Below are positions 58,776-58,850 of a stretch of DNA of 64,000 nt, piece after piece (within the stretch, counting starts at the first letter, position 1; each line of letters starts with the position of its first letter). The translations under genes were made by a program, and so were the position numbers. Source of the DNA: Escherichia coli (lineage in GTDB: Bacteria > Pseudomonadota > Gammaproteobacteria > Enterobacterales > Enterobacteriaceae); NCBI RefSeq assembly GCF_048403405.1, contig NZ_CP183129.1. The stretch is one strand, 5' to 3'. Below the pieces are notes generated by a model. The model was not told the DNA's origin and ran no database searches. It saw only the letters and a program-made list of their open reading frames with translations.

Positions 58776-58804
58776 ATCTTGTAACTGTTAAATCAGGCAA
58801 GGCA
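58776..58804 (+). promoter_or_regulatory. RAT-like (ribonucleic antiterminator) element overlapping the 5' arm of the leader terminator
   Basis: ATCTTGTAACTGTTAAATCAGGCAAGGCA resembles the recalled BglG/SacY-type RAT consensus (GGATTGTTACTG.TAAAGCAGGCAAAACC) and overlaps the terminator left arm GGCAAGGCA. Confidence 0.45.
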
Positions 58805-58850
58805 ATGTTTGAAGTAATTATTACTTCTGACGTGCCTTGCCTTTTTTTTT
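58796..58850 (+). terminator. Leader intrinsic terminator immediately upstream of the antiterminator gene
   Basis: 9-bp stem GGCAAGGCA / TGCCTTGCC enclosing an inner GAAGT/ACTTC hairpin, followed by T9 (58842-58850); ends 11 nt before the ATG at 58862. Confidence 0.7.

Follow-up and report, generated by a model that had tools for sequence, protein, structure and literature searches.

The leader upstream of the antiterminator gene at 58862 is predicted to act as a BglG/SacY/LicT-type antitermination switch that depends on a protein, is controlled by the PTS and regulates itself. We put the probability of this reading at roughly 0.85, on the basis of the sequence and its predicted folds. In the leader, a weak RAT-like hairpin and a strong intrinsic terminator have nucleotides 58795-58802 in common and are mutually exclusive because both use them. 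The leader and its operon lie on an AT-rich islet next to amiC in an Escherichia coli chromosome. Positions are those of the window, which is the whole 64-kb stretch of DNA that was analyzed (Table 1).

Table 1. Features of the leader, its upstream flank and the downstream operon, in window coordinates
Feature	Position	Strand	Evidence or remark
Terminator-like hairpin GTCGGCTTGAAAAATAAGCCGAC, poor T tail	58702-58724		Sole such site between amiC and the RAT
Candidate weak sigma-70 promoter TTTAAT-N16-TAATGT	58731..58758	+	Read from sequence
RAT-like antiterminator hairpin	58777..58802	+	Conserved core 58779-58800
Two-tier intrinsic terminator	58795..58850	+	GC-rich lower stem, AT-rich upper hairpin, U9
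Shine-Dalgarno GGAG (58852-58855) and ATG (58862-58864)	58852..58864	+	GGAG within the 11-nt gap 58851-58861
BglG/SacY/LicT-family antiterminator, 274 aa	58862..59686	+	Pfam, NCBIfam, PDB
PTS EIICB, MalX/PtsG-like (glucose/maltose family), without EIIA domain	59718..61298	+	NCBIfam, PGAP
MalY/PatB-family C-S lyase	61298-62482	+	Start/stop codons overlap neighbours
Short KpsF/GutQ-type SIS sugar-phosphate isomerase, without CBS domains	62475-63071	+	Start/stop codons overlap neighbours
Phosphoglycerate dehydrogenase (2-hydroxyacid) family, last islet gene	63143..64000	+	Truncated by the window end; coordinates transferred from L001

Structure of the leader

The lower stem of the terminator has 10 bp, in which AGGCAAGGCA (58795-58804) pairs with TGCCTTGCCT (58833-58842). 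The upper hairpin spans 58806-58832 and has the core GAAGTAA-TTA-TTACTTC at 58811-58827. The U9 tract (T9 in the DNA) occupies 58842-58850 and ends 11 nt 5' of ATG 58862. An earlier note on this DNA had described a strong terminator at this distance from the antiterminator start, with a 9-bp GC-rich stem, an inner hairpin and T9. All of these elements are present where it placed them, and a closing A-U pair brings the stem to 10 bp. The terminator fold has an energy of -28.1 kcal/mol, compared with -9.7 +/- 2.4 kcal/mol for shuffled sequences (z = -7.65; 0 of 200 shuffles are as good). In the unconstrained ensemble, nine of the ten pairs of the lower stem have a pairing probability of ~0.95-1.0, and the innermost, A58804-U58833, has 0.5. 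The 58795-58850 terminator is missing from the output of a simple terminator scan, which accepts only loops of 3-8 nt and so shuts out two-tier stems. The GGAG and ATG that follow are unchanged across all orthologous leaders of the close clade. Within the antiterminator coding region, at about codons 41-49, the + strand carries another hairpin followed by T5 (ATCCGGCTAACCGGAT TTTTT, 58983-59008), which is probably due to chance.

The 29-nt RAT-like segment at 58776-58804 is ATCTTGTAACTGTTAAATCAGGCAAGGCA. In its predicted hairpin, the lower stem pairs 58777-58782 with 58797-58802 and includes one U.G pair. A 2-nt bulge (A58783/A58784) separates it from the upper stem, in which 58785-58787 pair with 58794-58796 around the loop UUAAAU. 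The hairpin has an energy of -6.3 kcal/mol; this stability is by itself unremarkable (z ~ -2), as it is for the K-12 bgl RATs. A longer lower stem, pairing 58775-77 with 58805-07, was rejected because it is not conserved among orthologues.

In the full leader, the terminator has a pair probability of about 1, and enforcing the RAT costs 9.4 kcal/mol relative to the terminator state. When the growing transcript is folded, the RAT has the lowest energy as far as 58832, and the terminator supplants it between 58836 and 58842. When the RAT is enforced, no hairpin adjoins the U tract. Because the terminator wins unaided and the RAT blocks the terminator, termination is the predicted default and read-through would need a RAT-binding protein. 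The mutually exclusive structures that the earlier note had expected are thus found on folding, as a weak RAT and a strong terminator with 58795-58802 common to both.

Transcription from the candidate promoter would start at ~58764-58767, about 10 nt 5' of the RAT. Its TAnnGT hexamer and the surrounding GTGTAnnGTATA are kept in Escherichia, Citrobacter and Atlantibacter, and the hexamer is TACAGT in leader L012. A consensus promoter scan finds no + strand promoter in the leader; the candidate is below its threshold. The conserved block GTGTAnnGTATA lies at 58750-58764, 12-25 nt 5' of the RAT, and may be a -10 region or a regulator-binding site. In the window, this block contains a perfect inverted repeat, GTGTA-N5-TACAC. 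The repeat, and not the block, is lost in other genera.

Comparison with known RAT sequences

K-12 bgl RAT1 and RAT2 are experimentally defined BglG targets. Their sequences (GGATTGTTACTGCATTCGCAGGCAAAACC and GGATTGTTACCGCACTAAGCGGGCAAAACC, respectively) were read directly from NC_000913. Folded alone, they form a 4-bp stem ending in U.G, a 2-nt bulge and an upper stem, with energies of -6.4 and -7.8 kcal/mol. Their terminators are two-tier as well, with energies of -26 and -33 kcal/mol. In the window, the conserved RAT core is present (UUGUUACUG, apical loop, CAGGCAA), as are the upper stem and internal loop 2, with bulged positions 8 and 9 opposite G22. This layout is that of the minimum-energy folds of K-12 bgl RAT1 and RAT2. 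Position 8 is A (C in Atlantibacter) and not U; A8 is also found in the bgl-locus RATs of Clostridium tertium.

The pattern TTGTWACTG-N5-8-CAGGCRA occurs once on the two strands of the 64-kb window, against 0.01 occurrences expected. The ungapped identity between the candidate and bgl RAT1 is 16/29, a score that 109 window positions equal and that is therefore not discriminating. The candidate agrees with 16 of the 23 specified positions of the C. acetobutylicum RAT consensus (PMC12628678).

The training set of covariance model R2 consisted of K-12 bgl RAT1 and RAT2 and five Firmicute bgl-locus RATs, and the clade of the candidate was left out. The Firmicute RATs lie beside LicT-like genes in C. 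tertium and Thermoanaerobacterium loci. With filters off and both strands searched, the top R2 match in the 64-kb window is 58779-58800, with 18.6 bits and an E-value of about 0.003 under a rough calibration. The second-best match has 10.6 bits. In eight of the eight orthologous loci searched, the equivalent site is the top R2 match (13.3-19.9 bits). The canonical asymmetric loop 1 (A3 / A26 A27) and the G1G2-C28C29 closing stem are not recognisable in 58776-58804, either in the R2 alignment or by sequence comparison. Because R2 aligns only model positions 4-26, the lower loop and this closing stem are taken to be absent, and the predicted fold extends the stem through C3-G26 and U2.G27 instead of loop 1. 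In the LicT-RAT structure, one CAT monomer contacts the region of the lower loop and closing stem (PMC3105407).

The earlier note had claimed that a 29-nt segment resembles the RAT consensus. That resemblance holds for the central 22 nt and the fold, and is lost in the outer nucleotides, the lower loop and the closing stem.

A second covariance model, R1, was built from the orthologous leaders and is too narrow; K-12 bgl RAT1 is only weakly recognised by it (8.2 bits). No second RAT was found in the window with model R1. At 58600-58900, Rfam gives no match at gathering thresholds; the only matches are to unrelated eukaryotic or sRNA models with E-values of at least 0.9, and no RAT model is among them. 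Elsewhere in the window, the OmrA and OmrB sRNA genes are found at 29975-30056 and 30172-30259 (86 and 97 bits, Rfam gathering thresholds) and are unrelated to the RAT. In the C. tertium bgl locus, two tandem A8 RAT-like sites (GGATTGTAACTG...; L025 3366-3395 and 3574-3603) lie between the licT-like and EIIBCA genes.

Orthologous leaders

A protein-seeded scan of species-representative genomes, supplemented with metagenomic contigs, gives 11 distinct leaders for comparison. One locus, L013 (P0024), was left out because it appears to be the same E. coli locus in an assembly full of errors. Antiterminator orthologues that are 79-96% identical are found in E. whittamii, two Citrobacter species, Atlantibacter hermannii and another E. 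coli. Further leaders come from metagenomic contigs with antiterminators that are 78-79% identical. In the metagenomic lineages L009 and L010/L011, the antiterminators are 42-44% identical and the gene order is unchanged (antiterminator, EIICB, aminotransferase-fold protein, SIS protein). In all orthologous leaders found, the region just 5' of the start codon contains a strong terminator with a U tail and a RAT-like hairpin that overlaps it. The E. coli variants inspected do not differ in the RAT or in the main terminator stem.

The RAT cores of E. coli and L010 are identical at 23 of 25 positions; their antiterminators are 43% identical and the remaining leader is largely diverged. Both core differences (G58787 to A and C58794 to T) belong to a compensatory change from G-C to A-U in the upper stem, which is also found in L009. 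Across the 11 leaders, 96.6% of the cells of the RAT are paired and one pair is changed on both sides. This covariation is thin, with one pair in two closely related sequences (L009 and L010). In the terminator, five pairs are changed on both sides across the 11 leaders, and the covariation score is reached by 0 of 500 shuffles. Citrobacter and Atlantibacter have A at 58802 in place of G and, in the terminator, a matching T at 58835 in place of C; the change at 58802 also turns the U.G pair of the RAT into U-A.

In L009 and L010, the terminator has a different register and its overlap is limited to the lower RAT stem. The conserved thing is therefore the competition between the structures and not the exact sequence. 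The terminator arms in these two leaders (L009 222-300 and L010 2917-2995; Logan assemblies ERR4503890 and SRR11408915) are AAGGGCAATAC / GTATTGCCCTT. A lower loop of canonical appearance (A2/G27, with C1-G28 and G0-C29 as closing pairs) could form in the L009/L010 leader.

Antiterminator protein and downstream operon

The antiterminator contains a CAT RNA-binding domain (CAT_RBD, residues 1-55), PRD1 (73-160) and PRD2 (178-251) in Pfam. In NCBIfam, it is below the cut-off for LicT (NF046042, 230 bits against 300), GlcT (NF047357, 183 against 320) and BglG (NF007295, 102 against 322). By these scores, it is a member of the family but is orthologous to none of the named members. Outside its own clade, the closest relatives are 42-44% identical and the next about 35%; identity to K-12 BglG is 24%. 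The PDB match to LicT (1e-31) begins at residue 2 from ATG 58862, and the same start is chosen by NCBI PGAP in a genome identical over this stretch.

Among the homologues aligned, His98 and His157 of PRD1 and His205 of PRD2 are invariant. At the equivalent of LicT His269 (residue 268, 59663-59665), the Escherichia, Citrobacter and Atlantibacter clade has Arg, the 42-44% clade and Firmicute homologues have His, and K-12 BglG has Asn. Because this second PRD2 histidine is Arg, the HPr-dependent activation site may be reduced to His205. The specificity positions of the CAT domain, Pro26, Tyr30 and Asn31, are a mix of SacT-like and SacY-like residues, at or beside the positions that set specificity in B. 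subtilis (PMC3105407).

The EIICB encoded next presumably senses the sugar and controls the antiterminator. The operon genes are tightly packed, and no terminator-like sites above background were found between them. The earlier note had called this the classic arrangement for substrate-controlled, autoregulated antitermination. At the level of sequence the description stands, with a CAT_RBD, PRD and PRD gene and, next in a compact operon, a PTS EIICB gene, with conservation and compensatory changes in distant orthologues, and with a site that R2 finds. The operon resembles the K-12 malX-malY pair, with an antiterminator here in the role of the regulator. The K-12 pair is under the control of the MalI repressor.

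It is improbable that the RAT, though real, has another BglG-family protein as its partner, for example through cross-talk with BglG, or that silencing of the islet leaves the device cryptic. In B. subtilis, RATs and CAT domains are known to cross-talk (PMC3105407), and the core nucleotides are common to the bgl RATs. The islet RAT differs from these, however, at position 8 and in the lower loop (about positions 3, 26 and 27), where specificity determinants of RATs have been mapped (PMC3105407). In every orthologue examined, across genera and metagenomic lineages, the RAT is accompanied by its own antiterminator. The RAT and the CAT specificity residue 26 also both change between the two clades, Pro26 going with the G-C pair and Ala26 with the A-U pair, which is suggestive only. 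Crypticity would fit an islet that is AT-rich like the bgl operon, which is H-NS-silenced (PMC2646131); the islet may be silenced in vivo like bgl.

Genomic setting

The E. coli chromosomal order in the window is recD, argA, amiC, the islet, then the metZWV tRNAs and mltA. In a genome that matches the 1.2-kb query without a difference, PGAP annotates the islet genes as a PRD domain-containing protein, PTS transporter subunit EIIC, MalY/PatB, KpsF/GutQ sugar-phosphate isomerase and phosphoglycerate dehydrogenase. The same annotation places no feature in the leader. The islet block is c3405-c3410 of PAI-CFT073-metV, which is carried by 4/4 uropathogenic strains in an earlier comparison (PMC2831201). 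Among 5,426 complete E. coli genomes, 1,686-1,688 (~31%) have the islet. Its GC content is 32-46%, compared with ~52% in the flanks. One of its genes, c3406, is reportedly characterised in Mosberg et al. 2011, J Bacteriol.

The amiC stop codon (58604) directly abuts the islet start. At the same point, K-12 has amiC's own terminator (AAAAAGGCGCTGAATGGCGCTTTTTT) followed by metV, and this terminator is missing in the window. Because only the poor-tailed hairpin at 58702-58724 lies between, read-through from amiC possibly reaches the leader.

Such read-through needs stopping somewhere, and the hairpin with U9 could be read as a constitutive terminator or insulator of amiC transcripts at the islet border, its RAT likeness being coincidental. 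This is very improbable. The full-length identity to bgl RAT1 is modest, but the independent model R2 singles out the site. The RAT and terminator also stay with the operon in other contexts, where the gene upstream of the antiterminator region is of the LTXXQ family (L017-L019) or the AP-endonuclease family (L010). The element is therefore not merely amiC's terminator. Across the 42-44% orthologues, the RAT core is far better kept than other parts of the leader and contains a compensatory pair. The hairpin at 58702-58724, which is separate from the RAT, is closer to amiC.

Translation-coupled attenuation, or a true start at ATG 58805 that would put the hairpin inside the coding sequence, is highly improbable. 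ATG 58805 is in frame with the antiterminator ORF, but Citrobacter MGH106, Atlantibacter and L017 have ACG there and no usable Shine-Dalgarno spacing precedes it, and it was rejected as a start. LicT homology begins at residue 2 from the 58862 start, which PGAP also uses, and no Rfam cis-regulatory family matches the leader.

In E. coli ES7 (L022 1-400), an IS5-like element of the ISEc68 family is inserted at TTAG, window 58766-58769, ~7 nt 5' of the RAT. The insertion displaces the native upstream DNA, including the candidate promoter, and leaves the RAT, the terminator and the antiterminator gene untouched. It is found in 1 of 1,688 genomes and is reminiscent of the activation of the bgl operon by IS1/IS5.

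Discussion

As a protein-dependent antitermination switch, the leader would work as follows. Transcription would begin shortly upstream or enter from amiC, and the RAT hairpin at 58777-58802 would form first. An unbound RAT would be displaced once the 3' arm at 58833-58842 emerges, and the 10-bp stem with U9 would release the polymerase 11 nt before the antiterminator start codon. Idle EIICB would phosphorylate and inactivate the antiterminator. When EIICB is busy with transport of its sugar, the presumed inducer, PRD1 of the antiterminator would no longer be phosphorylated. The CAT dimer would then bind and lock the RAT, so that 58795-58802 are sequestered and the terminator is blocked. The whole operon would then be transcribed (antiterminator, EIICB, MalY-like lyase, SIS isomerase and dehydrogenase). 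The predicted circuit is positively autoregulated, because the sole RAT is ahead of the antiterminator gene. Loss of the terminator or of the EIICB gene is expected to switch on an otherwise silent operon, and gating by the RAT and terminator offers an experimental handle for finding the inducing sugar of the islet operon.

Literature searches on c3405-c3410 and PAI-metV give no description of the leader; a genome-wide RAT survey of 2015 might list the site. In the searchable literature, no description of the substrate and regulation of the c3405-c3410 operon was found. The RAT/terminator leader is so far unannotated, but its mechanism is well known and it is nothing new in kind. It is doubtful that the islet RAT represents a separate specificity class, with the loop 2 half kept and the lower loop and closing stem replaced by a continuous stem. 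If it does, the symmetric CAT dimer with Pro26/Tyr30/Asn31 must bind asymmetrically or recognise a different lower structure. The islet operon would then be insulated from BglG, and the ExPEC-associated islet would be tied to a private RNA-protein pair.

The order of elements is that of nagY-nagE of Enterococcus faecalis and bglGTH of C. acetobutylicum, in which one promoter serves a RAT and an overlapping long terminator, followed by an antiterminator gene and then a PTS gene. The nagY-nagE RAT is recognised despite low similarity to the consensus (PMC9981650). In the C. acetobutylicum bgl leaders, which have been tested, the terminator consists of two sub-stems with a GC-rich base and an AT-rich top (PMC12628678). 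These systems belong to other sugar families and Gram-positive hosts and have experimental support, whereas the islet leader is a prediction from sequence.

The islet protein shares the CAT-PRD1-PRD2 architecture of LicT, SacY, SacT and GlcT of B. subtilis, and in NCBIfam and the PDB it is matched best by LicT and GlcT. In that family, the RAT is stabilised against an overlapping terminator (PMC3575810, PMC5393181). GlcT controls a glucose-family EII, and its RAT is set apart by a different lower loop (PMC3105407). The divergence of the islet RAT is within the known range of the family because the GlcT RAT also differs in the lower loop. Unlike the B. subtilis members, the islet protein is below the equivalog cut-off for every named member. 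The licT and glcT genes are not known to be preceded by a RAT of their own.

Of the known systems, the leader of E. coli bglGFB is the nearest counterpart of the islet leader. The BglG antitermination mechanism is described in a review (PMC12591593). The islet differs from bgl in that no second RAT and terminator lie between the antiterminator and PTS genes, and its RAT has A8 instead of U8 and is without the G1G2A3 / A27C28C29 lower loop and stem. Its antiterminator is 24% identical to BglG, and its PTS partner is an EIICB without EIIA, compared with a beta-glucoside EIIBCA. In other respects the two leaders are alike. The core UUGU-ACUG...CAGGCAA, the 4-bp stem with U.G, the 2-nt bulge and the upper stem are common to both. 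The energies are similar, at -6.3 kcal/mol for the islet RAT and -6.4 kcal/mol for RAT1, and at -28 and -26 kcal/mol for the respective terminators. Both systems are on AT-rich, horizontally acquired DNA. As in the islet, bgl has a RAT (RAT1) and a two-tier terminator (t1) just before the antiterminator gene, bglG, an arrangement that would give positive autoregulation in both.
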